Below, in pieces: positions 25,305-43,457 of a stretch of DNA of 64,000 bases. This DNA is from a virus (taxonomy: Duplodnaviria; Caudoviricetes). The notes below the pieces were generated by a model. The model was not told the DNA's origin and did no database searches. It saw only the letters and a program-made list of their open reading frames with translations. Numbering within the stretch: position 1 is the stretch's first letter; each line of letters opens with the position of its first letter. The translations under genes and the position numbers were made by a program. Location: positions 170,928 to 234,927 of the IMG/VR virus record IMGVR_UViG_3300020576_005257; one strand, 5' to 3'.

Positions 25305-28300
25305 ATGAATCCCCTAGATAATGGTATAGAAAATATAGATGATTTAGATTTAGGACAAGCCGCCCCCAGCCTAAATGTTATCAAAAACGTCCCAGTTAAT
25401 GGGCAAGACACCAATGTCTTTTTCCGTGATATTGGTGGTAAAACTCCAGAAGTAGCTTCTAAGTTAATTGAGCTTGTTAATAGGAATAAGCTCTCTGGTG
25501 GCAAACAATCTCAACTTATTGCTGCTCATTTAGCTGAGAATGAGAAGTTCTTTGAAAGGGCTTTACTTCTTAATTCTGTTGAGGCTGGAAGGATTGATGT
25601 TGGAGCAGCATTAAAATCTTTCTTTGCCAGTAAATTTACTGTAGCAGATGCCCAGAGAAGACATGGGTACGAAATTGAAATACTCAGAGCTAAGGTTATT
25701 GCCTCAACAACAGGCATACCTCTCCATAAAAAAGCATTACAACAACACCAAGCATATTTAGCTGGAAATGGACAACATCCTTTAGGAGAATTACGCAAAT
25801 CACCCATTGACCCATATAAAAATACTAAGGGTTATTATCATATTGAAAGAGATAAAAATGGTAACAACGTCATTTACCTTAACGATATCCAAGCTGGTGC
25901 TATGGTTGTTGATATGGACGGTGACGAACTTACTGCTACCATAGCTCGTAAGAGAGATAAAAGCGGGAATATCATAGAAGAGTTTATGATTCCTGTTAAA
26001 GAACCATTACTTCAAAATCTACCTGTTTTTCGTAATATTAACTACGAAAAAGGTGTTAATTTTGATAAAACCAAGCTATTTGGTAAGTTTACAGGCTTAA
26101 ATTTCGGAGATCTGGGTGATAGGTTAGATCCAGACAGCATTAAATCAGCCTTTAGTAATGAGCTTTCTTCCAGAAAATACTCGGTTGTAGGTGATTTTTT
26201 AAGGGCTTATGATAAGCCAGAGTCCAGAGCAGGGTTTGGTGGGGTTCGTAATTTAGATTCAGTAAGAAAATATATAGCGGAAAAATCATTAGCAGCAAAT
26301 GAAACTGGTATTTTCACTATAGCTCACGACCAAAGAGCTATAATTACCAACCTATATGAGTTGCATAGAATGAGAGAGGCTGAGCCTAATAAGTATTTAA
26401 GTATGCTTAAAGAGCAGCAAGAAGCAGCCAGAGCACAGCTAGAAATTCTAAGACGAGAACCAAATAAAACTGCTAAAGTAATTGGTGGTAAAGCTTTTGG
26501 TGTATATAATGCTCAAGGTGAGTTAATTCAAGCAAATGAAGAAACATTTTTAGAAAGTATGCTTCATTTTAGTGATGACCCCACTAAAAACCTTAATTTA
26601 CGCAGAAAAACTGAAATTGACTACATATCCAAACATATGCTTGACGACCCAGAGCGATTAGACGATATTGAAGTCAGATCGTTGAAAGTTGGACGTAATG
26701 CTAATGCAATTTCTAGGTCCGATGCTTTAAGTATTGTTGACACCTTCAAAGAATATGTAAATGATCCTTTGTTAATGAGAGTTAAAACAATTACTCAGCT
26801 TAATGATAGAATTCACGCCTCATTAATTAGTTCTTTAGTATCAAAAACTGATGATGAAACCTTCTTTGATGTAACTAACAGAGCTTTCTTAAATGTCAAC
26901 ATAGATGATATTCAGACTAGAAAAGGGGATATTGAACCACGTTCTCCTATTAATTATGGGGATTATTCTGGAAGAAGACAAGGAACCACTTTAGGTAGGT
27001 TATCACAGGTGCCTGTGGTTGATAATAAACCACTTATTCAATTCCAAGAACTCAATGGTTTTGAGGGTATTGTTACAGCTGATCATCTAAAAGATAATAT
27101 TAACTATCGGCCAGCACCTTTAGCTATCACCATTAGAAATGCTCAAGGTCAAGTTGTAGCCCCTCAAATTGGCGGTAGTAATGGTAATGATATTACCCAA
27201 GTTAGTTTATTTGGTAATATAGCTAGCCCCTCAAATGGTGGTGTTGCTCTTCATAATCGCAGAGAATACCTAGCTACAGAGCTAGAAAGAAGACTCCAAG
27301 AACAGTATGGTAATACTAGACAATTTGGTGATACTTCTGGTGAACTTGAATTTCATACTATTCTACAAAGATTAACTCAAGATAGTGATACTAAACGACA
27401 AATTGCTTCTTCTTACGGTATTGATCCTAACAACATAGATCAGGTCAATTCGTTTAGCAGAACCATGCGTCAAAAGCTAGAAACTGCTGGTGCTGGAAGT
27501 GCTTTACACCAAGAAATAGCCTTAAAATACGATGTTACTCATAGGGGAGCTATGCTTACCACTATTCAGAAGCATCTTAATGATATTATAAGCCATGCTA
27601 ACGGTTTAACTGATGCAGCTGTAGAAATTGATCCTAATACAGGGTATATTAAGGCTGCTAATCCTCTTGATGTTCGCAGAGTATCAGCAAGATATGGTCT
27701 TGATGTAAGAGGACAAAACCTCTCTCCAGAGGTAAAAACCGACACCATTATGCAAGCTCTGCACAGTTTTGGTGGTTTTATTAGTAAAAATACATCTAGT
27801 GGTTCTGATAGATATATGCAGATGGCTTTTGGATCTGCTCCCGGTGATATTAGAACCGTTGGAATGGATCTAAGATATTTTACACCTTTAGAGCAAGCTA
27901 AACGACAAACAGACATTCAAAGACAAATGGCTGGGGGTATTAGGCTTGGTAAAGCTCGTATGGTGTTGGCTGATACTGAAATTCCTTTAGAATATTTCAG
28001 AATGACTGATCCAAATGCTTCTATGGGTCTAAAAAGACCTGATGAAGGTGTGATTTTAATGTCTCGTAGTTTTAGAGACAGATCTATTGAGCAGATTAAA
28101 ACTAAACTACAAATAGGTCCCACTTTGACCCAAGATAAATTAGGTGGGTCTATGGAAGATTATGTTGCCTATATGTTAGGTGACAGACAGCTTGCTAATG
28201 GAAGAAGATTAACTAGACTGGAAGAACAACATCTTCGTACTAAATTCCAAAAAGAATTTATGGGTATGTGGGATAAGAAGCAGATAGGTGGTAATACTAT

Positions 28301-29087
28301 TTATCATCTTAACGAAAAGGGCATGGATACTACTTTAAACAGAGTATTTAAAATGGGTTCTCTTTTCGGTGATAAAGCAGTTGTTCACACAGTAGATGAT
28401 ATGAGAGATGCAGAAGGCAAATTAATTGATGTCTTGATGCATATTAACCAATCTAGATCGCGTGGTAATGAAATTCCCAGATATCAACAGGTACTCCAAA
28501 CAGCTATTAATGAAGGAAGACTTAGTATTGATGATTTGGGAGAAGAATTTAGAGCTGGAGCCAGAGGTGGTCTTATTAATTTTGAAGAGGTCTTTGAAAA
28601 ACACGGACACGACCAAGATACCTTTCTTTCCAGAATTAAAACAGGCTTTATTGATCCACTAGAAAAAGTTCAACAAAATATTACGTTAACTGATCGTGGG
28701 GCAACTCAGGCTTTTAGTGGTTTAGTGGCAGAAACAGATGATCTATTTGCTGCTGGTAACTACGGTGATGTTTATAAGAGCTTTAAGGAAACTAATTTAA
28801 CTAGTAGAACTCTCGGTAGACCCAAATTGCTTGGTAAAATTGCTAATGCGTTAGACGATGAATTTGGCAATAATATTGCTGGTATAGGGGCACAGTTTAT
28901 TTTCCATGCCATGGGTTCTTTTGCCAAACAAATGTCAGAAGCTAATGTGGTTGGTGCAGGAATTAAAGAAAGTTTTAGTGCTGCTGAAATAATAAACTCT
29001 TCCAAGCAAGTTGTCCGTGGTGGACGAGAAGCTGGAAGAGCTTTACAGGATAGCCTAATGAATGAGGCTGGGATACCTAAACTTTAA
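25305..29087 (+). CDS. Single-chain two-barrel RNA polymerase (candidate virion RNAP)
   Basis: Catalytic-type DMDGD (25911-25925); beta-type FKMGSLFGDKAVV...EGKLIDVLMH...SRG with both conserved lysines (28350, 28374). Confidence 0.8.
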   Translation: MNPLDNGIENIDDLDLGQAAPSLNVIKNVPVNGQDTNVFFRDIGGKTPEVASKLIELVNRNKLSGGKQSQLIAAHLAENEKFFERALLLNSVEAGRIDVGAALKSFFASKFTVADAQRRHGYEIEILRAKVIASTTGIPLHKKALQQHQAYLAGNGQHPLGELRKSPIDPYKNTKGYYHIERDKNGNNVIYLNDIQAGAMVVDMDGDELTATIARKRDKSGNIIEEFMIPVKEPLLQNLPVFRNINYEKGVNFDKTKLFGKFTGLNFGDLGDRLDPDSIKSAFSNELSSRKYSVVGDFLRAYDKPESRAGFGGVRNLDSVRKYIAEKSLAANETGIFTIAHDQRAIITNLYELHRMREAEPNKYLSMLKEQQEAARAQLEILRREPNKTAKVIGGKAFGVYNAQGELIQANEETFLESMLHFSDDPTKNLNLRRKTEIDYISKHMLDDPERLDDIEVRSLKVGRNANAISRSDALSIVDTFKEYVNDPLLMRVKTITQLNDRIHASLISSLVSKTDDETFFDVTNRAFLNVNIDDIQTRKGDIEPRSPINYGDYSGRRQGTTLGRLSQVPVVDNKPLIQFQELNGFEGIVTADHLKDNINYRPAPLAITIRNAQGQVVAPQIGGSNGNDITQVSLFGNIASPSNGGVALHNRREYLATELERRLQEQYGNTRQFGDTSGELEFHTILQRLTQDSDTKRQIASSYGIDPNNIDQVNSFSRTMRQKLETAGAGSALHQEIALKYDVTHRGAMLTTIQKHLNDIISHANGLTDAAVEIDPNTGYIKAANPLDVRRVSARYGLDVRGQNLSPEVKTDTIMQALHSFGGFISKNTSSGSDRYMQMAFGSAPGDIRTVGMDLRYFTPLEQAKRQTDIQRQMAGGIRLGKARMVLADTEIPLEYFRMTDPNASMGLKRPDEGVILMSRSFRDRSIEQIKTKLQIGPTLTQDKLGGSMEDYVAYMLGDRQLANGRRLTRLEEQHLRTKFQKEFMGMWDKKQIGGNTIYHLNEKGMDTTLNRVFKMGSLFGDKAVVHTVDDMRDAEGKLIDVLMHINQSRSRGNEIPRYQQVLQTAINEGRLSIDDLGEEFRAGARGGLINFEEVFEKHGHDQDTFLSRIKTGFIDPLEKVQQNITLTDRGATQAFSGLVAETDDLFAAGNYGDVYKSFKETNLTSRTLGRPKLLGKIANALDDEFGNNIAGIGAQFIFHAMGSFAKQMSEANVVGAGIKESFSAAEIINSSKQVVRGGREAGRALQDSLMNEAGIPKL

Positions 29088-29440
29088 TCTTCTATTTTAC
29101 ATGTGACTTCATACCAAATAGGAGGACTACCAGGTCTTGGTATGCCTCTATCTTTTTCCCAGGGATATGGGTTTAAGGGATTATAAGGAGTAGGTCTTGG
29201 GTTGGTAATTGGTTGGGGTAGAGGTGGTAATGTGGGAATATCTAATCCCGCATAAATAATCACTAAATCAGAAATAGCCACTAATTTCTTTAAAGAATTA
29301 TTAAGGTTATTTATTTTGGTAGAATAAGTTTTAACAAGTGCCTGTGTGTCAACAGAAATTTCTATTAACTCTTGCTCAATACAAGCTACAATTTCTATAA
29401 AATTGGCTTTAGTTGTAAATTTGATATTATAAACTGACAT
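29084..29440 (-). CDS. Hypothetical protein with Pro-rich C-terminus
   Basis: 118 aa overlapping rmlA stop. Confidence 0.55.
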   Translation of the reverse strand: MSVYNIKFTTKANFIEIVACIEQELIEISVDTQALVKTYSTKINNLNNSLKKLVAISDLVIIYAGLDIPTLPPLPQPITNPRPTPYNPLNPYPWEKDRGIPRPGSPPIWYEVTCKIED

Positions 29441-30497
29441 TACTATCGTCTCCTAGTACGAAAACCTTGAATTGTTTAGCTTGATCTTCATTTTTTGGTT
29501 CTTCTTCTAAGTATACGTTCCTACCAATTAAAGAGTTTCTACAAGCTTTGATTGAATATAGTGAGGATCCATCCATTACAATTGAATTTTCAATATGAGT
29601 ATTCTCAATAAACACATTATTTCCAATTGAAGTAAATGCTCCCACATAACTATTGGCTATCACTGTATTTTCTCCAATAATAGCTGGTCCTTCAATTAGT
29701 GAATTGATAACTTTAGCTGTTTTATGTAAAATTACGTGGTCTGTAACGACACTATCATAAATTTCACCTGCTAAATCTTCTGAAATAGACGATAAAACCA
29801 CCTCATTTGCCTCAATTAGAGCCTCACTACTGCCTGTATCTTTCCACCAAGCCTCATTAATGGTGTGATGAAGTACAGTGTGCTTGTAGTCCAAGAGTGT
29901 CTGTATAGCCTCAGTAATTTCGTATTCTCCTCTTTTTGAGGGCAATAATTTCTCAATTGCGGCATGAATGATAGGAGAAAAAAGATAAATACCCACCAAA
30001 GCGAGATCGGATTTGGGTTCTACAGGCTTCTCTACGAGATTCACAACAACATCCCCCTCAATTTCTGCTACTCCGAATTGGCTGGGATTTTCTACTTGCT
30101 TTAAAAGGATTGTAGCAGCTGGATTTTGTAGTTTAAATTCTTGTATAACTGGAGATATATCTGCATTTATGAGGTTATCCCCTAAATACATTACAAATGG
30201 ATCGTCCATCAAGAAAGGATGGGCAGTTTTAACAGCGTGTGCGAGTCCTAGAGGCTCATCTTGTACAATATAGGTAAAAGTACACCCCCATCTCTCTCCA
30301 TCGCCACAGGAGCCAATTATAGGGCTATCATGTTCCGATATAATAATGCCAATATTAGTAATTCCAGCCTTTACAAGGGCTTCAATCCCATATTCCACCA
30401 CAGGTTTATTAGCAATAGGTATAAGTTGCTTAGAAATCGAGTAGGTAAGGGGTCTAAGCCTTGTTCCTTTACCACCTGCAAGTATTAATCCTTTCAA
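29427..30497 (-). CDS. rmlA: Glucose-1-phosphate thymidylyltransferase (long form)
   Basis: MKGLILAGGKGTRLRPLT, KQLIPIANKP, YLGDN, EKP, RGEYEIT, C-terminal beta-helix. Confidence 0.95.
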   Translation of the reverse strand: MKGLILAGGKGTRLRPLTYSISKQLIPIANKPVVEYGIEALVKAGITNIGIIISEHDSPIIGSCGDGERWGCTFTYIVQDEPLGLAHAVKTAHPFLMDDPFVMYLGDNLINADISPVIQEFKLQNPAATILLKQVENPSQFGVAEIEGDVVVNLVEKPVEPKSDLALVGIYLFSPIIHAAIEKLLPSKRGEYEITEAIQTLLDYKHTVLHHTINEAWWKDTGSSEALIEANEVVLSSISEDLAGEIYDSVVTDHVILHKTAKVINSLIEGPAIIGENTVIANSYVGAFTSIGNNVFIENTHIENSIVMDGSSLYSIKACRNSLIGRNVYLEEEPKNEDQAKQFKVFVLGDDSNVSL

Positions 30498-31531
30498 AGG
30501 TCTTCTCCTAAACTTTTAGAGTAAAACTGAGTGACAAAGTTCCTATAATCATCAGTTTCCTGAATTTCTTTCCACCAATTCTCGTTTTCTTTGTACCAAT
30601 TGATGGTTTCTTTAAGTCCATCATCAAAATTTTTCTTAGCTTTCCAGCCTAATTCTGTTTCAATCTTATCAGTACAGAGAGAATACCTCATATCGTGGGC
30701 ATTTTTTCTCGGATCTTCAATGTATTTAATCAAATCCTCCCCCTTTTCAGTCTCAGCAAGAAGAATTTGTACAATTTCCATATTGTTCCTTTCATTTACA
30801 TCACCAATATTGTAAATTTCCCCAATTTTCCCTCTCTCCAAAACTGAAAGTACACCTTCTGCGTGATCTTCAGCATGAATCCATTCTCTTACAGCCGATC
30901 CATTACCATAAACAGGAATTTTTTTGTTTTCTAGAAGCCTGGTAAGGAAAAAAGGAATCAGTTTTTCTGGGTATTGGTTAGGACCATAGGTGTTTCCCCC
31001 TCTCGTAATACAAACAGGGGTCCCAAATGTATTATGGTGGGCTAGTGCGATTAATTCACCCCCAGCCTTAGCTGCTGAGTAAGGAGTATTAGGATGAATA
31101 GGATCAGTTTCCTTAAAACTACCGTTCTTAATACTACCATATGATTCATCAGTAGATACATGAACTAGCTTCTTAACAGAAAATTTATTGGCTAAATCAC
31201 AAAGAACTCCAACTCCTTCCACATTTGTCTCAATAAAAGATGTAGGATTAGTTAGTGATCTATCATTATGGGTCTCAGCCGCAAAGTTTACAATATAATC
31301 AGGAACTTCTTTTTCAAACCAGGAAGATAAAAGAATTCTATCTTGAATTAATCCTTTTACCAAAGGAATATTTGGAGGTAAGTTATGAGGATTACCAGCA
31401 TAGGTAAGGGCATCATAAACAACAATGCTGGCTTCTGGATACTTTTGTTTAACTAACTTAGCAAAAGTAGAACCAATGAAACCAGCACCACCGCAAACCA
31501 ATATAGAAGATTTAGTTAAATCTACTTTCAT
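30494..31531 (-). CDS. rmlB: dTDP-glucose 4,6-dehydratase (start corrected to MKVDL)
   Basis: GGAGFIGS, DALTYAGN, NFAAETHNDRS, STDESYG, YSAAK, YGPNQYPEKLIP; longer start would overlap tRNA-Cys. Confidence 0.95.
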   Translation of the reverse strand: MKVDLTKSSILVCGGAGFIGSTFAKLVKQKYPEASIVVYDALTYAGNPHNLPPNIPLVKGLIQDRILLSSWFEKEVPDYIVNFAAETHNDRSLTNPTSFIETNVEGVGVLCDLANKFSVKKLVHVSTDESYGSIKNGSFKETDPIHPNTPYSAAKAGGELIALAHHNTFGTPVCITRGGNTYGPNQYPEKLIPFFLTRLLENKKIPVYGNGSAVREWIHAEDHAEGVLSVLERGKIGEIYNIGDVNERNNMEIVQILLAETEKGEDLIKYIEDPRKNAHDMRYSLCTDKIETELGWKAKKNFDDGLKETINWYKENENWWKEIQETDDYRNFVTQFYSKSLGEDL

Positions 31532-31545
31532 TACAGAAGTAGTGT

Positions 31546-31622
31546 TGGAGGACCAAGAGGGAATCGAACCCCCGAAAATCACCAGGTTGCAACTGGTTGC
31601 CTTACCATTTGGCTATTGGTCC
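31546..31622 (-). tRNA. tRNA-Cys(GCA)
   Basis: GGACCAA/TTGGTCC acceptor, ACCAG-TTGCAAC-CTGGT anticodon arm, TTCGATT T-loop, U73, encoded CCA. Confidence 0.9.
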
Positions 31623-31630
31623 CATTAAAA

Positions 31631-31716
31631 TGGAGGAAGACCGAGGAATCGAACCCCAACCCTTGTAGGTCGTTCTGTTTTCAAGACAGCCCCCAGCCCA
31701 GCCAGGGTGATCTTCC
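31631..31716 (-). tRNA. tRNA-Ser(UGA), non-canonical (possible 8/4 fold)
   Basis: GGAAGATC/GGTCTTCC acceptor, CTTGAAA loop, long variable arm, TTCGATT, TCCA end. Confidence 0.8.
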
Positions 31717-31724
31717 TTAAATCA

Positions 31725-32226
31725 TGGTGATAGCTGTAGGATTCGAACCTACGCGCTTTTTACAGACTAAGATTCCCAAAAATCTAAAGAACCAACAATG
31801 AGTTTATATTTCTCTTTATCTTTTCCTAAAGATATTGCAGTAGAACCACATATTGATGAAGGTAATAAATATGTCTCCCCTTCATTTGTTAGAACAAAAA
31901 CAAAATCTACAAATGATGGATCGAATTTCTTAATGGTAGATCTAGATTTATTTCCACCACAGACTTTTAAACAAACTACAAAAATATCGTATCTAGGTTT
32001 TGATGTTGTAGTTTTTACTTGAATTTTTTTTAATCCATTCAAGTCAACTACTAAGTCATAATCTTGGCTATCTGTTAAGGGAATACAGACAGTCAAACCC
32101 TTAGAAGTAAAATAACTAATCGCACTACCAAGACCGACATCCCCTTGTTTTTTACTGTTTTGTTGGGTTAGCATATTAGATAGTGTTGTCAAAGCCTCGT
32201 GCAATCGTCCACTCTGCCAAACTATC
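31725..32226 (-). pseudogene. Leu-like tRNA gene interrupted in the anticodon loop by an endonuclease ORF
   Basis: 5' half 32226-32191 (GATAGTT TG GCAG AGTGGACGA TTGC A CGAGG CT); 3' half about 31775-31725 (GTAGG TTCGAAT CCTAC AGCTATC ACCA); acceptor strands complementary. Confidence 0.75.
31767..32174 (-). CDS. PD-(D/E)XK homing-type endonuclease (I-Ssp6803I/PDDEXK_5-like)
   Basis: KQGDVG...VCIPLTDSQDYDLVVD...KIQVKT...VDFVFV; start at MLTQQ since a longer start overlaps the tRNA half. Confidence 0.85.
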   Translation of the reverse strand: MLTQQNSKKQGDVGLGSAISYFTSKGLTVCIPLTDSQDYDLVVDLNGLKKIQVKTTTSKPRYDIFVVCLKVCGGNKSRSTIKKFDPSFVDFVFVLTNEGETYLLPSSICGSTAISLGKDKEKYKLIVGSLDFWES

Positions 32227-32238
32227 ACTTAAAATTAC

Positions 32239-32886
32239 TTAAACAGTGTCGTGTGTTCTACCAATATTTGCAGTCACAAGATCCTGATCTACAGCATCCA
32301 CTTCCTCTGAGTTATCCAAATCTGCATACCTTCCAGCAGTACTCCAAGTAGGATCACTAGGAGTAGCACCAAGTACACTGATTGCATAATCTACGTCAGC
32401 AGCATCAACTACACCATCACCATTACAATCACCAGTATAGATAGTTGTAGTCACAGGTGTAGCAGTTCCAGTTTTAGTAAAAACCACATTTCTAACTACT
32501 CGATTCAATCTTGGCCTACCAGCTTTAATTAGAACAGAATAAGTGCCCACAGGCAAACCAGTAATTGAAGAAGAATAAACTTCACCCATATCAACTGAAA
32601 CATTTTTAGTATTACAAAGCTTACCTTGTTTCCAGAATTCAAAAGTTACAGTAATCGGGCTTTGTACGGCAGCATCAGCAAAAGTGAGTGTACCACCAAA
32701 TGTTTTAGCTGGTGTTAGTTGTCCTGTAGTACTAAAAGTAATAGAGTCAGCAGGTAGTAATAGTTCAGGAAGCTGTGTATCCCCTTCCCCAAACGTATCA
32801 AATGAACGTCCAAGTGTTACATCATAAGGAATACCATCATCACTGATAATAAGGCCTGGCGTAATCATACCATCTTGATTAATCAT
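32239..32886 (-). CDS. Beta-sandwich plus dockerin-like (double Ca-loop) protein
   Basis: GDCNGDGVVDAAD...ADLDNSEEVDAVD duplicated motif. Confidence 0.8.
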   Translation of the reverse strand: MINQDGMITPGLIISDDGIPYDVTLGRSFDTFGEGDTQLPELLLPADSITFSTTGQLTPAKTFGGTLTFADAAVQSPITVTFEFWKQGKLCNTKNVSVDMGEVYSSSITGLPVGTYSVLIKAGRPRLNRVVRNVVFTKTGTATPVTTTIYTGDCNGDGVVDAADVDYAISVLGATPSDPTWSTAGRYADLDNSEEVDAVDQDLVTANIGRTHDTV

Positions 32887-33140
32887 TAAAATTGCTCCCT
32901 TGCTGCTCTAAGAACATCCTCAGTCATAGTAGCCTTAGCAGTGGCACCAGGGTACCTAGTAAGAACTGTACCAGATGCAGAAAGACCAGAGGTATCAGCT
33001 ATAGTGACACCAGTAACACCTAAACTAAAAACAGAATTAGCAAACTCTGAGAAAGGTCCAGGTAAAGTGGGGTTATCTAAAGCTAGGTTAATAAATGTAC
33101 CTAAGCTTGTTTCAGTTAATCGTTTCCCAGAAAGTATCAT
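32886..33140 (-). CDS. Hypothetical protein
   Basis: 84 aa, AGGAG RBS and CCTCTATTA upstream. Confidence 0.6.
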   Translation of the reverse strand: MILSGKRLTETSLGTFINLALDNPTLPGPFSEFANSVFSLGVTGVTIADTSGLSASGTVLTRYPGATAKATMTEDVLRAAREQF

Positions 33141-33177
33141 AATGATAGGTGTCTCCTATCCTATAATAGAGGAAAAA

Positions 33178-33375
33178 TTAAGAATACTTTTTATGTTGTG
33201 AGTTTCTAGTGGGGGTTGGATGGATTTTCATGTGTCGATAATGTCTAACTATCAAAAAGAATAAAATGGCTCCTGTTAAAAGTTTGATAGCTAAAATAAT
33301 ATCATACTGAAAAAATAAAATAGATGCAAACAATAAAGCCATCAATTCGAAGTAGGGATAAGATGGTTTATTCAT
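33178..33375 (-). CDS. Small two-TM membrane protein
   Basis: 65 aa, two hydrophobic stretches, GAGAGG RBS. Confidence 0.5.
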   Translation of the reverse strand: MNKPSYPYFELMALLFASILFFQYDIILAIKLLTGAILFFLIVRHYRHMKIHPTPTRNSQHKKYS

Positions 33376-33429
33376 AGACTAAGCCTCTCATTAAGAATAG
33401 AGGAAAAAATAATAAAAGAATAATAAAAA

Positions 33430-34080
33430 AAGAAGCAGATGGCTAGTCTACTTCTTTACATTTAAATTCAGCTTCGCAACATCATGGCTAGGCCTCCTAG
33501 GTAATTTCGGGGACCACGTTATCAACGGAGTCCGTGCTGCTTCTACACATGGCAGACCAGCTTATTAATTTCAGAGTTGTCGTTAATTCGACTCAATTCC
33601 ACATTTGGGAAGCCAACCCACCCTATTTTCAGGAATTGTATTAGGGCCACTCGCCTGTATACAGGCCACTCCGAAACTAAACTTAAAATAAGAACCTTTT
33701 CTGGTTCCTACAGCGAAAGTAGCAGATTGTGTCGCTAAGGACACCGCCGTCTACCGGGTTATTCTTCCCCACTAATCTACCCATTTATCAAGAAAATATC
33801 AAAAACTAATAAATGAAAAATCTACGTACTAAACGTAAACCTCCGACTTCGCAGGGAAAACTGATATACACAGGGAGGGCGGGTCGCGTCGGGCGGCCCG
33901 TGGCTTAGCAACTAAAGGAAGAAGCCCCCTCCCATGTGTGCGGTATGTTCTACTAACTCTATTAATTTTTCTCCCCACTCAAATAAGAGTTACTCAGAGT
34001 AGAACTAAATTGATTTATTCGTACTATACCAAACGATCTATTAAGTTTTCAATTTACTAATCACTATACTAGACGCATTT
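33430..34080 (-). ncRNA. Unidentified structured non-coding region (2-3 units)
   Basis: No ORF >60 aa; GC-richer than flanks; closing stems TTTCGGAG/CCCCGAAA and CACAGGGAGGGC/GCCCCCTCCCATGTG; CCTCTATA motif upstream at 34108. Confidence 0.45.
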
Positions 34081-34133
34081 AGTGTCTAAAAAGTTTCAAC
34101 AATTTTATATAGAGGGGAAAAATTTATTAAATT

Positions 34134-34412
34134 TTACTCTTTATATCCCATATGGAAGTCTAAAGCTTCAACTTGATCCCAGAAAATGGCTTGGTATCCA
34201 CCTTCTCGATCAGTATAAATAATATGAGACTCGTCCACGTATCCACTGTCACCCAAATGTATTGAGTGAATAACACCAGAAGCCAATTTTACTTGTGCTT
34301 CACCATGATTAGTTAAAATACTCAGAAACACCAGAGCCTTAGAGTTATTAACTTCTTCTCCCAAGAGTTCCTTGAAAGGTTTAAGCGTTGATTTTAATCC
34401 ATTATTTGCCAT
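34134..34412 (-). CDS. Small beta-rich protein (possibly Sm/SH3-like)
   Basis: 92 aa; VKLASG...IIYTD...AIFWDQVEAL pattern. Confidence 0.5.
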   Translation of the reverse strand: MANNGLKSTLKPFKELLGEEVNNSKALVFLSILTNHGEAQVKLASGVIHSIHLGDSGYVDESHIIYTDREGGYQAIFWDQVEALDFHMGYKE

Positions 34413-34418
34413 TTTATT

Positions 34419-35183: not shown

Positions 35184-35275
35184 TCTTTATTTATTTCCGT
35201 AGTGTTGTTCTAGGTTTAAACCTGTATGGGGTACAGTGTGTTCCTTAGTATAGTTGTCCGTAGGCATCGTTATGT

Positions 35276-35920
35276 TTAACCCACATTTTCTTCCAATATG
35301 TTATTTAAGTTGCTTGGGGTATGGATCCAAATTACATCAGTATGAATAGATTTAAAAATTTCTCTTGCTTTTATATAATCTTTCTCTGAGAGTTCGTCAC
35401 AAATGACGTATGCATAAGGATCCTTAATTGCAGTTATAAACTCTAGTTTTCTATCATTAATAGATAAAAAATCTAAATGTGTTTGCTTTCCAAAAAATTT
35501 CTGTAAATTTCTTTGTGTTGTCTTTCCCATACTTTGATTAGGACTCAAAACTAATATGGGCAGTAAGAACTGATTGGCTAAGTATCCAGCAATCGTTGAC
35601 TTACCAGACCTTCTCACCATTGTTATCTCATTCACTCTTGCCTTTCTATGTGAAATTAAAGATAACACAGTTTCTTGGGTCTCTGTCGGTTCTTTGCAAG
35701 ATGGTTTATTAGTAATGTTTGCTAAACTTAATTTAAGGTGTAGATCATCAAAAGGAAAATTTATTGAAACCCACCCAGGAATTCTAATTAGTGGAAATAG
35801 TTTGTTTAAATCTTCAAGCTTTATATAGGGGTCATTAAAACACATTCCACTAGATCTAGGAGTAAATGCTACATGGTCTCTTTTGTTACTAAAAAGTTTT
35901 TTTAAGAAATTCTTTTTCAT
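35276..35920 (-). CDS. Truncated P-loop NTPase-like protein
   Basis: RRSGKST Walker A and YVICDE Walker B. Confidence 0.6.
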   Translation of the reverse strand: MKKNFLKKLFSNKRDHVAFTPRSSGMCFNDPYIKLEDLNKLFPLIRIPGWVSINFPFDDLHLKLSLANITNKPSCKEPTETQETVLSLISHRKARVNEITMVRRSGKSTIAGYLANQFLLPILVLSPNQSMGKTTQRNLQKFFGKQTHLDFLSINDRKLEFITAIKDPYAYVICDELSEKDYIKAREIFKSIHTDVIWIHTPSNLNNILEENVG

Positions 35921-36013
35921 TCCTTATATAGTGTAACAACAGAATCGTACAGTAAACCCCTTCACCTTCTACATGAAGGTGAACTTCGTTTCCATCCAAG
36001 TGTTACATCAAAA

Positions 36014-36424
36014 TCATTTTGAATGATTTTGTGCAGTTTGGGTTTTCCAACCCAAACTGACATCATTTGCTTTCCAGATTGGAAGCAAATTAGTATACAG
36101 AGTACAATCAAAAGGAGGATTCCCATAGACTAAAGCATCTACACAATCACCATGTACACATACTACAATAGCCTTATATACCTGGGGGTTTCTATTGATC
36201 TTCTTACCCTTATTGGAAATAGCCTTAGGAGGTTCATGTACCTCAATTTCAGCTCCAATAGATACTGCTGGAATAGGGTTATCTAGGAGCATAGCAATTT
36301 CTTGCTCAGCTTCTAACAGTGTGTCAAATGATTTCATTTTACTGTTAGAGATTGCATCCCATACCTGATACTGCTTACTAAAGTAAGTAATATAGGGTTT
36401 GATATCATCTTTCTTTTTTTCCAT
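36014..36424 (-). CDS. Hypothetical protein (start probably MEKKKD)
   Basis: ORF track 36014..36472; first ATG with purine-rich leader at 36424. Confidence 0.5.
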   Translation of the reverse strand: MEKKKDDIKPYITYFSKQYQVWDAISNSKMKSFDTLLEAEQEIAMLLDNPIPAVSIGAEIEVHEPPKAISNKGKKINRNPQVYKAIVVCVHGDCVDALVYGNPPFDCTLYTNLLPIWKANDVSLGWKTQTAQNHSK

Positions 36425-36598
36425 AGAACTACCCTTTCCTGGGAAACCTATACACATGAGGTTTGTCTTCAATACTGGAAATATACTATTCTACTTTTAT
36501 TTATGGTCCTTAACCTAAAAAGTTTCATCTTCCAGATTTTGGTTTTATATTTTTTCTATGTACAGCAGAAATAGAGTAAAAGGGAAACTGGAAATTAT

Positions 36599-36784
36599 AC
36601 CCCCACCCCTTTTATATAAAGGTTTAACTATGCTCCTTCTTACTTGTGAATAGTAGGTCTTAGGTCCTAGACAAATAATAACCATTAAAACTTCACTGTT
36701 AGCTCATCAAAGATAAAATCATTACAAACTCATATATGTATATGAATGGGGGGTACCTACTATTTAAGACCCCCACCCCTTTTT
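36599..36784 (+). repeat. 15-bp direct repeat ACCCCCACCCCTTTT x2 at the strand switch
   Basis: Copies begin at 36599 and 36769. Confidence 0.8.
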
Positions 36785-36870
36785 CCAGGATTTGTGGTGA
36801 TCGCCATTCATATTACATTCTTCAGAATTTACGGAGAGTTATGGATGCATCAAGCATTCGAAAGGTTAAC

Positions 36871-37101
36871 ATGAAAATCTCACCTATCGTTCTCATCATC
36901 ACAGCATGTGTCATCATGGTCGGCTCTTGGACTATATTGAAACTTCAGTATCAGGTATACGAAAAGACTGCCTACACAGAAGGCTACACACAAGCACTCA
37001 AGGACATCCGCTCGTCATTCAAAGGATCTGTCCCTGCTGAGGTGGAGTACAAAGGCAAAGCATTATTAGCTGGTGCTGATGCTACCAAACTCGCTCTCTA
37101 G
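36871..37101 (+). CDS. Small N-terminally anchored protein
   Basis: MKISPIVLIITACVIMVGSW hydrophobic N-terminus; AAGG leader. Confidence 0.6.
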   Translation: MKISPIVLIITACVIMVGSWTILKLQYQVYEKTAYTEGYTQALKDIRSSFKGSVPAEVEYKGKALLAGADATKLAL

Positions 37102-37129
37102 TCTCTCGTCACACACATAGGTAACTACT

Positions 37130-37264
37130 ATGAAATTCGCTCGTAACAAAACCAAGTCTCGTAATGCTCGCCGCTACTACCGTGGTGAAACGACCGCTCG
37201 TAATCACAAGCCTATCCGCAAGGACAGACTTCACAACCACAACACAGGAGTCTGCACAGCATGA
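37130..37264 (+). CDS. 44-aa very basic protein (not in ORF track)
   Basis: MKFARNKTKSRNARRYYRGE...; AGGT leader; ATGA overlap with next gene. Confidence 0.55.
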   Translation: MKFARNKTKSRNARRYYRGETTARNHKPIRKDRLHNHNTGVCTA

Positions 37265-37467
37265 TGTCCTGGCTCTATGACCAAGCATCTCCAACTACAT
37301 CCAACCTTTTAAAGGCTGGGTACACGTTGGCAGAAGTCAACAAAATCAGATGCAGTGAAGGTCGCACCTGTACGGGGTGTAATCAACCCATTCACTGGTC
37401 TCGGTACAACGAAACGTTGTGTCCCAACTGTCTCTCTGAGGAATACGCACAGCAATGCTCGGCGTAG
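37261..37467 (+). CDS. Small Zn-finger protein
   Basis: CTGC...CPNC. Confidence 0.6.
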   Translation: MMSWLYDQASPTTSNLLKAGYTLAEVNKIRCSEGRTCTGCNQPIHWSRYNETLCPNCLSEEYAQQCSA

Positions 37468-37528
37468 CTCTCATCGCCATCGGACTCCTCTTCGGAGGGG
37501 TCTACTACTCTTGTCTCGGTAAACACTC

Positions 37529-37786
37529 ATGAAAGTTCCCGCATTCTTCGGCTCAGCACTACGTGCTCCTTCCCACATCATCTCCACACTTGCTATCAAG
37601 CAACAGGAGATCAAGTCTCAACCAAGCCAAACAGCAATGGCTCTCGACCGCATGGAGAAACTCCAAGCAAGGGTCAACGAAACCAAGCTCACTCTGGATG
37701 AAGCCAAGGACGCAGTTACTCGTGCTCAACTGAGTTACGATACGGCTGTCCAAAACCTGGCTATCTTCCGGAATTCGATCCGCTAA
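37529..37786 (+). CDS. Small coiled-coil protein
   Basis: 85 aa flanked by hairpins. Confidence 0.6.
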   Translation: MKVPAFFGSALRAPSHIISTLAIKQQEIKSQPSQTAMALDRMEKLQARVNETKLTLDEAKDAVTRAQLSYDTAVQNLAIFRNSIR

Positions 37787-38006
37787 CAAAATCCTACTAC
37801 CTGGTACTAACTGGGTAGTAGGTAAAATTTTTTCTCGTCCGACCGATATGTGGCATACCTCTCCGTAAAGGGGAGGATGGATGGTATGACCTACAAGCTG
37901 AAGCTACTCGCTTCGCTCGTCGGAGACCTGCGGTAGGTTGGGGGAGAGGGGAGTCTTGGACCTACCATTAGACTCTCCCTTAGTCTAAAATCAATCATGG
38001 GTATTT

Positions 38007-38099
38007 ATGCAACTAATCCTGCTGTTCCTAATCTTCGTCGTCGTTCCGGCTTTACTGATCGGACTCGTCGTCCATCTACTGGACAAATGGCAGATCTAG
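38007..38099 (+). CDS. 30-aa single-TM peptide (not in ORF track)
   Basis: MQLILLFLIFVVVPALLIGLVVHLLDKWQI; codon style matches neighbours. Confidence 0.5.
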   Translation: MQLILLFLIFVVVPALLIGLVVHLLDKWQI

Positions 38100-38761
38100 A
38101 TCTGCCAGGAGCCACCTTGTTCACCAAGGTTCCCCCGAAGGGGGTGGCTCGGGGCCACGAAGTGGCCCACATAAAGAACAGCACACTTGCTTTCTTTACT
38201 CTCTTATTCTATACAGGGAGTTTCTTTACTTCACCTATGGGTGAGTCAATTACTGCTCCTTCAGGAGATGTTAATTGTTACTCATGGTCGAAAACCTCTG
38301 GTTTTCTAGACCTTTCCCATTCTGAGACTTCACTAAAAAATCCCTCTGTCTAAAATAATTTATTTGAGCCTAGGGGTCTATGTTAAGTCTCTCTCATGTA
38401 ACCCTTAATAGCCCCCAATCCGGGGGGTGTTAATTGTTACAACACTTGAAAAAGTACCTTTTTCACCTAGTTTGACTCATCAACTAGGCTTTTTGCTCTC
38501 TCTGTACTAGTCTTCTGGTTTACCCATAGATCAATTACTCCTCCCATGGGGGGGATAAAAACAATGATCTCTTCCAGAATACAAGTACAAACTCTACCTA
38601 TGTGCAACCTTTAGGTTGCACGAGAAAGAACTAACCACGTATGTGAGTTGGTAACTTCACTAAGTTAGCTTTCTTTCTCCCTACTGGAAATATAGACTTC
38701 ATGTCTTGTTTCCCTCTACACACTCTATTCTATTCTCTCTCTTCTCTTTCTCCTTTCATCT

Positions 38762-39148
38762 ATGCCCCGTATCTACTGGGCTACCTATTCCAAACTCTCT
38801 CACAAAACTATGAAATACTCTGATCTCCGTCCTGGTGATACTCTCACCTATGCTACCTACGTCTCTCGTGTTGATTACCTCGACATCCCCAAGTATTGGA
38901 TGGAGTCTTCAACACTTCGAACTACCAACCTATGGGGTAGTATGGTCAGCACTACATATATTGAAGTTGCTGATAACCTTCCTTCTGACATTCTCATGGT
39001 TCGTCGTAATGACAAACCAATCTATGTCAAGGGTCTACCTTATCCACTTCCCATTCCCAAACCTAAAGGTGACATCCGCAAACGGCTTGATGCTCACCGT
39101 GTCCTTAAGTCTTCTTCTACAAAGACAAAGGGATACTGGCATCTATGA
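38762..39148 (+). CDS. Hypothetical protein
   Basis: 128-aa ORF; DLRPGD motif. Confidence 0.55.
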   Translation: MPRIYWATYSKLSHKTMKYSDLRPGDTLTYATYVSRVDYLDIPKYWMESSTLRTTNLWGSMVSTTYIEVADNLPSDILMVRRNDKPIYVKGLPYPLPIPKPKGDIRKRLDAHRVLKSSSTKTKGYWHL

Positions 39149-39346
39149 AGTACTCTTCCAATTCTTTGGATTAGTCTTCAACAACATAGTGAAAAAAATC
39201 AACTATGGGTATATTTCAGACCCATAGCTTTTCACTATTTCTCATCCTTCCAGGTTGTGCATTACAAATGCTTCTACAACCACTCTCTCTAGGTCACGGA
39301 GGTACCTTTACTTGGGGCTAGGTTCCACTTAGCCCCACTCTCACTC

Positions 39347-39682
39347 ATGTACAACTTTGGTCAATTCATGGGGCACCTTGGTGTCCTCATCTCTCGTATT
39401 TTCACCGAAGCATATCGCCAATCTCAGTTCACTGAATTGGAGGATGCTGTTACTGGTAGAAAACCCAAACCTACCCTTCAGGTAGTTAACACTGACTACG
39501 GCACTATCACCGTTAAATACGGCGATGAGCAAGTAGTCCTTGAACGTGTACGTCGTACTGACTCTTGGCAACCCATCGGGATGTTCCAAGGGGAAGTAGG
39601 CTACCTACGACCTGGCAAACTACCAATCCCTGGAAGGGATGCTGCCATCTGCTGGGCTAAATCCTACTTAGGTGCAGCCTAG
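39347..39682 (+). CDS. Hypothetical protein
   Basis: 111 aa, preceded by hairpin. Confidence 0.6.
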   Translation: MYNFGQFMGHLGVLISRIFTEAYRQSQFTELEDAVTGRKPKPTLQVVNTDYGTITVKYGDEQVVLERVRRTDSWQPIGMFQGEVGYLRPGKLPIPGRDAAICWAKSYLGAA

Positions 39683-39929
39683 TCTCACCTGGAGTCTCAC
39701 ACCTATGATGTTCCTCATCTCACTCATGCCATTCTTGGCAATCAACTTCTTCACTGTACTCTGTCTCATGACAGGGGACTACTCATCTGCAAGGGGTTAT
39801 TTCATGACCTCCTTGCCATTCCTCTCCTTCGTTATCTTGGTTCCATTCTTCCACACCTTGTGGAGACGGAACCTTAAGCTCCTCAAAGAGCTTAAAGTCA
39901 AACAAGGAGGAGATAATGATCTCCTCTAA
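39672..39929 (+). CDS. Two-TM membrane protein
   Basis: Two hydrophobic segments, overlapping neighbours. Confidence 0.55.
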   Translation: MQPSLTWSLTPMMFLISLMPFLAINFFTVLCLMTGDYSSARGYFMTSLPFLSFVILVPFFHTLWRRNLKLLKELKVKQGGDNDLL

Positions 39930-40497
39930 CAGCACTGAATCTCTCTTCCCAGAGGACTTCCCTAATGTGTATCGCATTGGCATCACTGGACACCGACCAC
40001 GGGGGTTACTTTCAGTACCCAACCATGGTTATGTGGACTATGCCTACTGCAATACCAAACTCCTTGAGTTCATGCGGTCAACTATGTTCCCCATGATACT
40101 CAACAAATACCCAGATCCTGTCTGTATCTCAGGCATGGCTCTGGGTGCTGATCAAGCTTACATGCAAGTTGCTCAAGAGCTAGGATTCAAGACTGTTGCT
40201 GTTGTACCCTACCCGGAACAACCCAACATCTGGCCTAAAGCTGCCCAGGAACACTATCACCAACTGTGTGCTAATGCCACAGAAGTGATTACAGTGTTTC
40301 CTTCAGGCGAAGCTGGCCTTCTTGATTTCCGTCAAATGCTCTTTATACGCGACAACCGTCTTGTTGACCGATGCACCAATATGGTTGCACTACACAATGG
40401 CCTACCTTCTGGTACTGGTCATACTGTAGGCTATGCTCACCAACAAGGCAAACCTGTCGCCAACTTCTGGAAGCTATGGAGACAATATCTCAAATGA
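39916..40497 (+). CDS. SLOG superfamily, YspA/DUF1273-like protein
   Basis: IGITGHRP, ISGMALGADQ, VVPYPEQ...W, RDNRLVD, SGTGHTVGYA. Confidence 0.9.
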   Translation: MISSNSTESLFPEDFPNVYRIGITGHRPRGLLSVPNHGYVDYAYCNTKLLEFMRSTMFPMILNKYPDPVCISGMALGADQAYMQVAQELGFKTVAVVPYPEQPNIWPKAAQEHYHQLCANATEVITVFPSGEAGLLDFRQMLFIRDNRLVDRCTNMVALHNGLPSGTGHTVGYAHQQGKPVANFWKLWRQYLK

Positions 40498-40817
40498 AGA
40501 AAACTCACCCTACTCTTACCAGTCACCTCAAAGATTTTGAAGTCAATATCAAAACTTTTGAGGAGGCAGTCGGTACGTCTGCCGATATCACTGGTTATAC
40601 GCTCAAAATGCGTACCCATTTTCACACTCTGCATGAGAAGGGCTTTATAAGCCCTGAACTTTATGCCAAGTTCAACAAGCATCTTGATTCCATCAATGAT
40701 ACTCTCCATGATCTTGGTCACGAAGCCTTCATCGTTTACGATTCTCTCACTGAGGAACAACTGTTCCTTGTACAACTCACTCAGAACTCAGTTCCACCTG
40801 AGTTCATTGATCGTTAG
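40494..40817 (+). CDS. Hypothetical helical protein (start MKKTHP)
   Basis: ATGA overlap with SLOG gene. Confidence 0.6.
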   Translation: MKKTHPTLTSHLKDFEVNIKTFEEAVGTSADITGYTLKMRTHFHTLHEKGFISPELYAKFNKHLDSINDTLHDLGHEAFIVYDSLTEEQLFLVQLTQNSVPPEFIDR

Positions 40818-40896
40818 CAAGCATTCGCTTGCCATGTCCTAGCACTCCAAAGGAAGTGCTTACCCTAGCTATGCTAGGGGTTGTCTCACTAGTAAC

Positions 40897-41538
40897 ATGC
40901 AACACGTTCGATATGGTACAGCTCTGCTGACCCTTCCTACAATTCCTGCTCCCACTTCTGGTGGTGAGCCTCTACAACATCCTGTCGTTCGGCATCTTCT
41001 TGCCGGACGTATTGACGATGCAATCGTTGGTATTCGAGAGCTGGGTCTTACCCAAGCTCGCCATGCTAATGGTACCACTGTGTACTCTGGTGAAGGAATT
41101 GAAATCCTTCACACCACAATTGCATTGTCAGCTGAACTCAAACCTGACACATTCTCCCTAGACATCAACGACCGCTGTGTCATTAATGACAAACAGGGAC
41201 GGTCTATGGACTGGGACTGCGATGGTGATCCCATTCAACTTATCCTCTTCAAGGAATTAGTTGATGGGGAAATTATCACCAAAGCTATTCACGTCAAATT
41301 TCCAGCCCCCAAACTTCCACCTGTGTGGAAGATGGTTCCTCTGCCAGAACCTGTTCTCAAAGGTCTTTCCAAAGCCAAGGCAACTTCATTGATTAATGAA
41401 GGTCCTCCAGTTCCTGACTGGATTGCTGCTATGAAAAAGACTTTTACTCCACAGCCTATTGGCACCGTCACCATTAGATGGTGGAACCATATCATGTCTC
41501 TTTATCATCAAGCATTTCTTAATGCTTCTAACAACTGA
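40897..41538 (+). CDS. Second RNA polymerase, catalytic (beta-prime-like) fragment
   Basis: NDKQGRSMDWDCDGD...GEIITKAIHVKFP aligns with NDIQAGAMVVDMDGD...GNIIEEFMIPVKEP of 25305..29087. Confidence 0.75.
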   Translation: MQHVRYGTALLTLPTIPAPTSGGEPLQHPVVRHLLAGRIDDAIVGIRELGLTQARHANGTTVYSGEGIEILHTTIALSAELKPDTFSLDINDRCVINDKQGRSMDWDCDGDPIQLILFKELVDGEIITKAIHVKFPAPKLPPVWKMVPLPEPVLKGLSKAKATSLINEGPPVPDWIAAMKKTFTPQPIGTVTIRWWNHIMSLYHQAFLNASNN

Positions 41539-41633
41539 TCGTTGCTCTCTTAGAGCACTATTCAAAAGCTCCAACGTCGGTTGGACTTCCCGTCGGATGC
41601 TAGTCCGATAACTCACGCCTGGTTACTAATAAC

Positions 41634-43415
41634 ATGAACCTCAGTCTGTTCAAATCAATTGTTTCTCCTTTGTCACAGGCTTTCCGTGACGACCTTGAAG
41701 GTCGCACTATGAAAGCCGCCCGTAAGGGCGAAGGAGCTGAACGTCCTCTCATCTTCGACCTCCCAGTCGAATCAATGGATCCAATTACTGCCGTATTCTA
41801 TGGTAGTCGTGGAGCCATCTCCCAATCTGCCAATCTTGGCTATTCCTGGGATGAGGTGGAACTTGCGGCCAACGGCCATATGCAATTCACCGAAGCCCGT
41901 AAACACAAAGATCCTAATCCAACCCGTCAGGCTTGGACTGATGATCCTGTTCAGAGTGATTATTCACTCGTTGCTTGGCTCATCAAAGGGGGCTACTTGC
42001 AAGTTCAAGAACTTGCTGCCACCCGTAAAGGTGTTCCACCTGCTATCTCTGTGTCTCTCTTCAATCCAGCTACTGGAAAACATTCGGCATTCGTCTGGAA
42101 GAAGGATATGGGTGGTGATCACGTCGGTTTCTCAACCGTTCTGTATCCCGCCTATGTCTACGAACCTTCCACTGGAGAAGGCCGTGTAATGAGTCCTCTC
42201 GAACACTTGTCACTTTACGTGACTCGTCACTATGGTTGCTCTTGCAACATCACTACTCTGGGCTATGTCTCAGCCATCTTCAAAGGTGGCGGAGCTTATG
42301 CCCTTGAGTCATGCCTCAAGAAGTTCGTTGAACTTTTTGGCGATGTTGTCCCATCTACCATCACAGATGGTAGGCACACACCCTACAAGAATGCGAAGTT
42401 CTTCGCTTCTCGTACTGTTGTTGTGGACCATAGCTCCTTCCCCAGTTTCATGGGTAAGGAAACCAGCATTGATGTAATGATGCGTATTACCGCCCAAGCT
42501 TCCAAAGCTTTTGGTGGTATCCATTATCCATCAACTGGTAGTCGTCCTTCTCTCCGCAAGCATTTCCTTGCTGGCGAGAATCGTTTCCCAGAGTTCTGCT
42601 CTGGTATGAGCGAAGCTCATCGACCTGGCCGCAATCGTTCTCTGCTTGTTCGCACTCTGCGTACCAGCAATATGAAGGTTGCACTTGTGGTCACTGATTC
42701 CCTTCAGTGCTACATCACTCCCACAGGTATCGAGAAATCAAAACCTGAAATTGATACCTTCCTTCCACAGGTATCATTCGAGCCAGTTGAAAACTGGCCT
42801 ATGCTTGAACTCTCCAGTTGGTCTGGTAAGACCACTACTGTTTGGGTTTCTCCAAACCCTAAACAAGAGTCCAAGCGTGTTGGCAAGCTCCTTGACCAAG
42901 AGGGGTCTCGTTTCGAGCCCCGTGAGGTTGGACAATGGACTACTGAAGATGGTACTCCCATCGACGTTCTCTACTCCACTGCTGAAGCTGAAGACAAAAA
43001 GCTCATGGCTTTCTTTCTCAGCAAAGCCACACCTCAGACCATCATTGGTCCAAAGGGTGAACAGATCAAAACTTATGTTTTTGATCATCACCTATTCCGT
43101 TCCGGTGTCGCATCCGAAAACATTCAACCACGTTTCTTGAAACAGTGGACTGTTGAAAGTTTCACAGGCAAGCTCCTTGCTTGTGTACTTCAGGATGAAG
43201 ACCTTCGTTTCACAACCCGGAACAACTTCCAGATGCTAAGAGCTAAAGCTCTTTATGAGTCAGCAGAACTGCTTGCTCATCAACCAGAGGGTACTGAAGT
43301 GGAGCTTCTCAAAGAACTCCCATCTGACTTGTCAGATGAACAACTTCAAGATGAAGACACTCACGAAGCACTTACTGTGCCAATCGGTGAGATTGTCGGC
43401 ATCGAAGTCCTCTGA
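41634..43415 (+). CDS. Second RNA polymerase, large fragment (trigger-loop-like plus beta-like)
   Basis: DDLEGRTMKAARK vs DDIEVRSLKVGRN; GKLLDQEGSR...EDGTPIDVLYS beta DPBB motif. Confidence 0.72.
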   Translation: MNLSLFKSIVSPLSQAFRDDLEGRTMKAARKGEGAERPLIFDLPVESMDPITAVFYGSRGAISQSANLGYSWDEVELAANGHMQFTEARKHKDPNPTRQAWTDDPVQSDYSLVAWLIKGGYLQVQELAATRKGVPPAISVSLFNPATGKHSAFVWKKDMGGDHVGFSTVLYPAYVYEPSTGEGRVMSPLEHLSLYVTRHYGCSCNITTLGYVSAIFKGGGAYALESCLKKFVELFGDVVPSTITDGRHTPYKNAKFFASRTVVVDHSSFPSFMGKETSIDVMMRITAQASKAFGGIHYPSTGSRPSLRKHFLAGENRFPEFCSGMSEAHRPGRNRSLLVRTLRTSNMKVALVVTDSLQCYITPTGIEKSKPEIDTFLPQVSFEPVENWPMLELSSWSGKTTTVWVSPNPKQESKRVGKLLDQEGSRFEPREVGQWTTEDGTPIDVLYSTAEAEDKKLMAFFLSKATPQTIIGPKGEQIKTYVFDHHLFRSGVASENIQPRFLKQWTVESFTGKLLACVLQDEDLRFTTRNNFQMLRAKALYESAELLAHQPEGTEVELLKELPSDLSDEQLQDEDTHEALTVPIGEIVGIEVL

Positions 43416-43429: not shown

Positions 43430-43457
43430 ACCCCCGTAGGTGCAAGCCTACGGGGGT
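43430..43457 (+). promoter_or_regulatory. Conserved-loop hairpin 1
   Basis: ACCCCCGTAGG-TGCAAG-CCTACGGGGGT. Confidence 0.55.

Follow-up and report, generated by a model that had tools for sequence, protein, structure and literature searches.

Do two separate loci in the genome of an uncultured tailed phage encode two related and compact RNA polymerases (RNAPs), and could these act one after the other during infection? The question was raised by a stretch of 64,000 nucleotides (hereafter the window), which makes up the final 64 kb of a Caudoviricetes virus record 234,927 bp long (IMGVR_UViG_3300020576_005257, positions 170,928 to 234,927; the record is 35.9% G+C and ~95% complete). A sequence-only reading had proposed that a 1260-aa protein, and an adjacent pair of 213 and 593 aa, are paralogous polymerases built around two double-psi barrels. 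Here we refer to the 1260-aa protein as RNAP-A and to the 213-aa N-half and 593-aa C-half together as RNAP-B, with L001 and similar labels for the loci of relatives and G000 for this genome. All three open reading frames were present where that reading had placed them, with the quoted motifs in their translations, and homologues, profile comparisons and the folds of the β-like halves support two related polymerases of two-barrel type, one free-standing and one split. What is new is a two-barrel polymerase variant whose domains come in the reverse order and which an uncultured clade of jumbo phages carries throughout as a related pair; we regard it as real and unusual.

The RNAP-A gene and its predicted functional residues lie in the window as follows.

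25305..29087, plus strand: RNAP-A, 1260 aa, single chain (open reading frame, homologues and model)
25911..25925, plus strand: predicted catalytic Asp loop of RNAP-A, D203-D205-D207; all three Asp invariant in 9/9 rows covering the loop
25998..26006, plus strand: K232-x-P234 of RNAP-A, after the Asp loop; K and P invariant in 9/9 rows
28350..28376, plus strand: β-type lysine pair of RNAP-A, K1016 and K1024, inside the β-aligned part; first K in 10/10 rows, second in 9/10 at its column

The RNAP-A chain runs from a β′-like part (~aa 115-465) through a β-like part (~aa 565-1160) to a C-terminal bundle of helices that is poorly modelled. Full-length homologues numbered seven (1181-1318 aa, 23-55% identity), and one diverged partial sequence and two fragments were also found. 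Neither RNAP-A nor any full-length homologue is fused to a tape measure protein, and DxDGD is absent from the giant open reading frames of the genome. Conservation of DxDGD, on which the identification leans, held throughout: the triad remains invariant in the RNAP-A family down to 23% identity, and is likewise kept in RNAP-B (below). The KxP motif sits 25-29 residues past the triad in this family and is a candidate stand-in for the RxP of β′, while a GxxT block and an E..K block are also invariant or nearly so. Separately, the C-terminal bundle (window ~28790-29030) gave many matches to sigma-region-2 domains (Z 5.3-6.4) in a region where the predicted local distance difference test score (pLDDT) of the model is below 50; this is a weak lead, and the bundle could be a built-in promoter-opening module or merely a common helical bundle.

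RNAP-B is encoded by two consecutive genes, with these features.

40897..41538, plus strand: RNAP-B N-half, 213 aa, β′-like, with Asp loop and putative bridge helix; aligns with the N-termini of fused homologues
41215..41229, plus strand: predicted catalytic Asp loop of RNAP-B, D107-D109-D111; kept in all N-halves and fused forms
41296-41304, plus strand: K134-x-P136 of RNAP-B, after the Asp loop, by conservation
41539..41633, plus strand: 95-nt spacer between the halves, with three small hairpins
41634..43415, plus strand: RNAP-B C-half, 593 aa, with putative trigger loop, β lobes and β barrel; K418 and R426 at 42885-42911
43430..43457, plus strand: terminator-like 11-bp G+C-rich hairpin just past RNAP-B, putative from sequence

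Six homologues of the C-half were identified, four of which are 809-866 aa long and include the 213-aa part as their N-terminal portion. A fifth fused homologue (933 aa) was located 6 kb away from the most distant RNAP-A homologue. The break occurs at the same site in three phages, this one included (the others at L004 and L005-L007), and the start contexts of the two halves are near-identical. Sequencing error or read-through was excluded as its origin, as the halves lie in different frames, a second stop follows four codons on, and the same break recurs in the other two phages. Judged from these alignments, the split is real and lineage-specific and not a defining feature of the enzyme. Prediction of a complex between the halves scored 0.86, compared with 0.00 for the best control, with at least 89% of contacts agreeing between runs and a partner pLDDT of at least 85 (the mark applied is reached by 58 of 80 solved pairs and 2 of 110 mismatched pairs). 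Split-gene halves pass such tests easily, and the model suggests that they can rebuild one chain, no more. The confident interface of this model includes residues 104-110 of the N-half and, from the C-half, residues 418 and 426-428, and residues 60-62 and 70-71 of the N-half pair with the strand at the C-terminus of the C-half.

Further information came from the RNAP-B homologue of L006, where the Asp loop is broken ahead of its final Asp by an insertion at 4711-5623 that carries a LAGLIDADG gene. The last nucleotide is U in the upstream exon and G in the insertion, as at the exon and intron ends of group I introns. Rfam did not detect the insertion as an intron, and from its ends and gene content we describe it as a group-I-like intron with a homing nuclease. 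Placement of such an element inside the Asp loop fits an essential site and supports the polymerase reading.

We examined the claimed similarity of the two loci at increasing alignment depth. In pairwise comparison it was barely above chance, with BLAST E=0.008 between the 1260-aa and 213-aa proteins, around DxDGD only, and E=0.27 between the 1260-aa and 593-aa proteins, and three-row profiles gave 1.7%. However, family alignments of 12 and 13 rows compared with hhalign gave 94.5% (E=8e-8), the match covering 244 columns in the non-catalytic middle. A relaxed local profile alignment then ran collinearly through 580 columns, Asp loop and β barrel included, and paired DxDGD, the strand ending in KxP, GxxT, DIE/DLE..K, K-x7-K/R and G..iD; it scored 76 against a best of 30.5 in 30 block-shuffles. 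Profile-versus-single-sequence controls were underpowered, the RNAP-A profile scoring only 29 against a single RNAP-B sequence. The collinear blocks listed in the sequence-only reading are the ones paired in this alignment, although the "IMSLY" half of one is not conserved among RNAP-B homologues, and K-x7-K, the motif named there for the β barrel, is correct for RNAP-A but is K-x7-R in RNAP-B. The last of the listed blocks, FAAG/FRSG, was not seen in the 580 columns, yet residue 1062 of the RNAP-A model and residue 741 of the RNAP-B model both align to residue 954 of plastid β. RNAP-A and RNAP-B also occur together in four lineages. The reversed domain order and the downstream KxP set out below are rare traits that both enzymes have in common. 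Their common ancestry is well supported by the profiles, and they are likely to be each other's nearest kin.

Structures were predicted for RNAP-A (pLDDT 66.7) and for P0007, a fused RNAP-B homologue (pLDDT 79.1; predicted template modelling score 0.74). Foldseek returned RNA polymerase β-type chains in all of the top 50 rows for both models, and the top nine rows from VIA were likewise β-type chains, with Z 9.1-11.0 for RNAP-A and 7.3-9.2 for RNAP-B. Using VIA-align, RNAP-A aligned to phiKZ with Z 11.0 (root-mean-square deviation (rmsd) 3.9, 192 residues) and to plastid, Pol I, AR9 and bacterial β chains with Z 9-11, while the best alignment of RNAP-B had Z 9.2 (rmsd 3.4, 142 residues), and P0007 matched residues 125-1243 of E. 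coli β over the β lobes and barrel (Z 10.3, rmsd 4.7, 290 residues). Furthermore, residues 590-748 of the RNAP-B model match isolated double-psi barrels. The β half of RNAP-A and RNAP-B is thereby shown, at the level of predicted fold, to be RNA polymerase β-like. No relatives came from scanning viral and genome contigs for patterns, and ESM Atlas feature searches were uninformative. The viral fold search of BFVD with the RNAP-B model placed second an uncharacterised 798-aa protein of Acinetobacter phage ME3 (L034:3152-5548; E 7.5e-3), which has no DxDxD and no profile match and was dropped as a relative; it may be a β-like protein.

The models' N-terminal portion contains five main strands and a helix around the Asp loop, with a strand-helix-DxDGD-strand pattern spaced as in β′, and a β′ identity for this half is indicated only by that spacing, the invariant triad and its position at the interface. 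A long helix with a conserved K..GxxT, followed by a conserved E..K block, stands where a bridge helix and trigger loop would be expected. In both enzymes the Asp loop is near the N-terminus, the β lobes and barrel come afterwards, and both ends of the chain fall close to the points at which cellular β ends and β′ begins. No [RK]xP motif is conserved 20-100 aa upstream of DxDxD in either family, while KxP is invariant downstream of the triad in both, at 25-37 aa (73 in one homologue with an insertion). The secondary structure suggests, as a hypothesis, a catalytic barrel that lacks one strand and one helix and in which the strand bearing KxP threads back in after the loop; permuted β′ profiles, used as a test of such rewiring, did not discriminate between the arrangements.

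The surroundings of RNAP-A bear on when it is made.

20546..25203, minus strand: terminase operon, divergent from RNAP-A, with an intein-bearing large terminase subunit (TerL) and four upstream genes
25230..25291, both strands: cluster of divergent late-type motifs, with CTCTATTT at 25230 (plus), a copy at 25266-25273 (minus, toward the terminase operon) and CCCTATTT at 25284 (plus, toward RNAP-A)

The motif CTCTATT is found before sheath, head-tail, baseplate and terminase-operon genes as well as the RNAP-A gene, and 24 of its 51 copies in the genome are non-coding (12% expected). A back-to-back motif pair also precedes the RNAP-A homologues in L001, L009, L010 and L011, high-G+C relatives included, and divergence from the terminase operon is kept in L001, L002, L009 and L011, with the short contig L010 showing the first two genes of the operon. 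Because CTCTATT is shared with structural and terminase genes and the back-to-back pair is conserved, RNAP-A is most likely a late gene. For a late polymerase gene beside packaging genes, virion cargo would be the best explanation, as in P23-45 and phiKZ-like phages (PMC10770324, PMC7824862), and by this analogy packaging of RNAP-A is plausible. L002 lacks the TerL intein (window 20546-22927), and it is larger in L009 and L011. Across the genome, ~10 gene starts have a second motif, ACACTA, 8-35 nt ahead of them, and a Shine-Dalgarno-like word was seen in only 77 of 254 genes.

RNAP-B lies in a 16-kb block of 21 genes, all on the plus strand and 43.5% G+C, and in relatives it adjoins SLOG, NADAR or macro-domain genes, a setting that fits an early block. 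One neighbour is constant.

43764..44636, plus strand: 290-aa gene, right after RNAP-B in 6/6 loci compared (alignment, 16-37% identity)

Its product had no sequence match in Pfam, PHROGs or the PDB and is a candidate accessory factor of RNAP-B.

Elsewhere, the genome encodes a 201-aa sigma-70-type factor, similar to the extracytoplasmic function group, with regions 2 and 4 (G000 20436-21041; L015), which points to use of the host polymerase at some stage. In addition, adjacent 419-aa and 476-aa proteins are encoded outside the window (G000 50556-53472; L019:4657-7573), where they follow a helix-turn-helix gene and an adjacent superfamily 2 helicase gene. In the 419-aa protein a canonical RxP precedes a DGDGD loop by 68 residues, and the pair, which gave no profile match to RNAP-A or RNAP-B, is a probable third polymerase, very small, of two subunits and canonical motif order. 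The two-enzyme cascade put forward from the sequence agrees with a late-type motif at RNAP-A beside the terminase operon and with RNAP-B in a separate plus-strand block, but given the sigma factor and the probable third polymerase, two steps are probably too simple.

Taken together, we judge it probable that RNAP-A and RNAP-B form one undescribed compact two-barrel family, β′-like part before β-like part, with RNAP-A acting from the virion and RNAP-B after infection in a cascade of more than two steps. In both, the Asp triad would bind Mg and the β barrel would supply two basic residues, as conservation suggests and, on the β side, also the fold, catalytic activity being presumed. The profile match and co-occurrence suggest descent from a common ancestor, with both enzymes present before the clade radiated, and fit a duplication and an old acquisition alike. 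In this phage RNAP-B would work as a heterodimer of its halves. RNAP-A would be made late with the packaging genes, carried in the virion and used to start transcription of the early block containing RNAP-B, a step that we consider somewhat likely, and RNAP-B would then transcribe a later gene class. Another class would probably be served by the third small polymerase, or by the host polymerase with the phage sigma factor. We hold only tentatively a bolder version, in which the family is permuted twice (β′ before β, and the basic-residue strand after the Asp loop) and, with the 419-aa and 476-aa pair, gives the phage three polymerases of its own in a host-independent relay.

Several observations weigh against this overall reading. 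Neither enzyme had a sequence match in Pfam, PHROGs, the PDB or cultured phages; the best Foldseek E-values were weak (3.6e-4 for RNAP-A and 6.9e-3 for RNAP-B) and the Z-scores modest; the RNAP-B fold is that of P0007, which is 39-41% identical to it; and the second basic residue is Arg in place of Lys in seven close RNAP-B homologues, with K-x7-K in two distant ones. Likewise, only their position identifies the bridge helix and trigger loop, for which the profile match is non-significant, the N-terminal profile matches to β′ (E 0.001-0.08) come from the Asp loop alone, and no shared early promoter motif was found in the genome. Of the two double-psi barrels that had been predicted, the models contain the β-type one, but no structure search aligned the N-terminal part to the β′ barrel, these searches being dominated by the larger domain. 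This missing match would suit a β-like half that alone derives from a polymerase, joined to an unrelated metal-binding fold with DxDGD, but a search so dominated is no test of the N-terminal part, and both the β′-like spacing around DxDGD and the interface shared by N-half residues 104-110 with C-half residues 418 and 426-428 argue for β′, so that we regard an unrelated fold as very improbable. Repurposing seems to us quite unlikely too, whether for synthesis of primers or other nucleic acids or, for RNAP-A, as a packaged protein that pulls DNA or has a protective role and whose active site is a relic. In its favour, the upstream RxP that in cellular enzymes is linked to the choice of ribonucleotides is missing, the catalytic barrel seems short of strands in the models and the genome has other candidate transcription machinery; against this, all the Asp residues and the basic pair are retained in both families, as are the β lobes that hold downstream DNA, and the invariant downstream KxP could take the place of RxP.

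A further alternative keeps both enzymes active but leaves RNAP-A unpackaged, with the host polymerase starting infection, RNAP-B serving the early-to-middle stage and RNAP-A acting as the late enzyme that reads CTCTATTT, including its own promoter in positive feedback. A late-type motif indicates timing and not packaging, no early phage-specific motif was found, and gp99, the YonO-type enzyme of the terminase-related phage 0305phi8-36, carries no virion annotation. However, late transcription is not easily started by a polymerase that is itself first made late, the linkage to the packaging operon, constant over five loci, fits virion cargo, and virion/non-virion polymerase pairs are used by P23-45, phiKZ and AR9 (PMC10770324, PMC7824862). 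We consider an unpackaged RNAP-A unlikely, and retain a virion-borne RNAP-A as the preferred reading.

The phage itself is a member of an uncultured clade of ~235-kb myoviruses (jumbo phages), and the window contains genes for a capsid protein and a sheath-like protein. Among cultured phages, its terminase is closest, at 22-26% identity, to those of Bacillus phages KLEB27-3, WH1 and 0305phi8-36, Moorella phage MTATph1 and Acinetobacter phage ME3; the phage GroEL is 40-45% identical to those of many phyla and gives no host placement. Two tRNA-like genes, one with its anticodon called UCA (window 47525-47599, 75 nt, enlarged anticodon loop) and one called CUA (genome 21181-21260, 80 nt), are possible stop suppressors, although TGA and TAG end 35 and 20 of 197 genes, respectively, and are both ordinary stops. 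Directly convergent on the RNAP-A gene are a long-form rmlA and an rmlB-like dehydratase gene (window 29427-31582), followed by tRNA-Cys and tRNA-Ser. A 215-aa protein (window 32239-32886) has a C-terminal dockerin domain (Pfam E 2.7e-7), and a 404-aa tail-tube-like protein (window 1709-2923) ends in a Hint-like domain, as judged by eye.

A natural enzyme of ~800 aa with reversed order that occurs in fused as well as split form would illustrate the freedom with which the universal transcription core can be re-threaded and the small size it can reach. The finding also offers proteins open to direct testing: a minimal polymerase encoded by two genes and, from a lineage of myoviruses that does not belong to the phiKZ group, a candidate virion enzyme. 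It suggests, too, that further enzymes of this kind lie unrecognised among phage proteins called hypothetical. Compared with the cellular β/β′ core, the β lobes and barrel align over ~290 residues, whereas the junction is reversed here and most of β′ is absent. To our knowledge, all natural fusions and single-chain viral enzymes join β to β′, and our literature search found no report of a reversed-order enzyme, most subscription papers lying outside its scope.

The multisubunit enzymes of phiKZ and AR9 gave the best structural matches for the β barrel region and are likewise paired in jumbo phages. They have four or five subunits, with β and β′ each split over several, in phages that lack sigma factors, whereas here 800-1260 aa are arranged in one chain (RNAP-A and fused RNAP-B) or two (split RNAP-B), the β barrel contains a short hairpin or helical insert, and a sigma gene is present. 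Closer in build are YonO-like gp99 of 0305phi8-36, one of the nearest cultured phages by terminase (24-26%), and crAss-type phi14:2 gp66 (PDB 6VR4), both single chains with both barrels. Yet gp99 is β-first, with RxP before D573, and had no match to RNAP-A or RNAP-B in a single-sequence control, which is weak, and gp66 matches the two models at Z 4.7-5.7 only. The solved single-chain two-barrel polymerases compared in PMC10770324 all place the β barrel first, and as the survey in that paper filtered on RxP upstream of DxDxD, it would have missed RNAP-A and RNAP-B. The nearest parallel in organisation is P23-45, with its virion, tape-measure-fused gp96 and its non-virion gp64 (PMC10770324): there as here, two related compact two-barrel enzymes carry DxDGD, of which one is associated with virion genes and the other sits in an early block. 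In P23-45 the β barrel comes first and RxP..DxDGD follows (RxP 38 aa before D326 in gp64; D779 in gp96), whereas in this 235-kb myovirus the Asp loop is N-terminal with KxP after it, RNAP-A is free-standing and RNAP-B may be split. RNAP-A and RNAP-B had no profile match to gp64 or gp96, with weak single-sequence controls, and gp64, gp96 and QDE-1 were not among the structure matches listed (top 50 rows), an absence that is not exclusion. As the domain order here is the reverse of that in gp64 and gp96, P23-45 serves as a functional analogy and not as the family itself, and the pair described here probably works like the P23-45 pair while standing outside that family.

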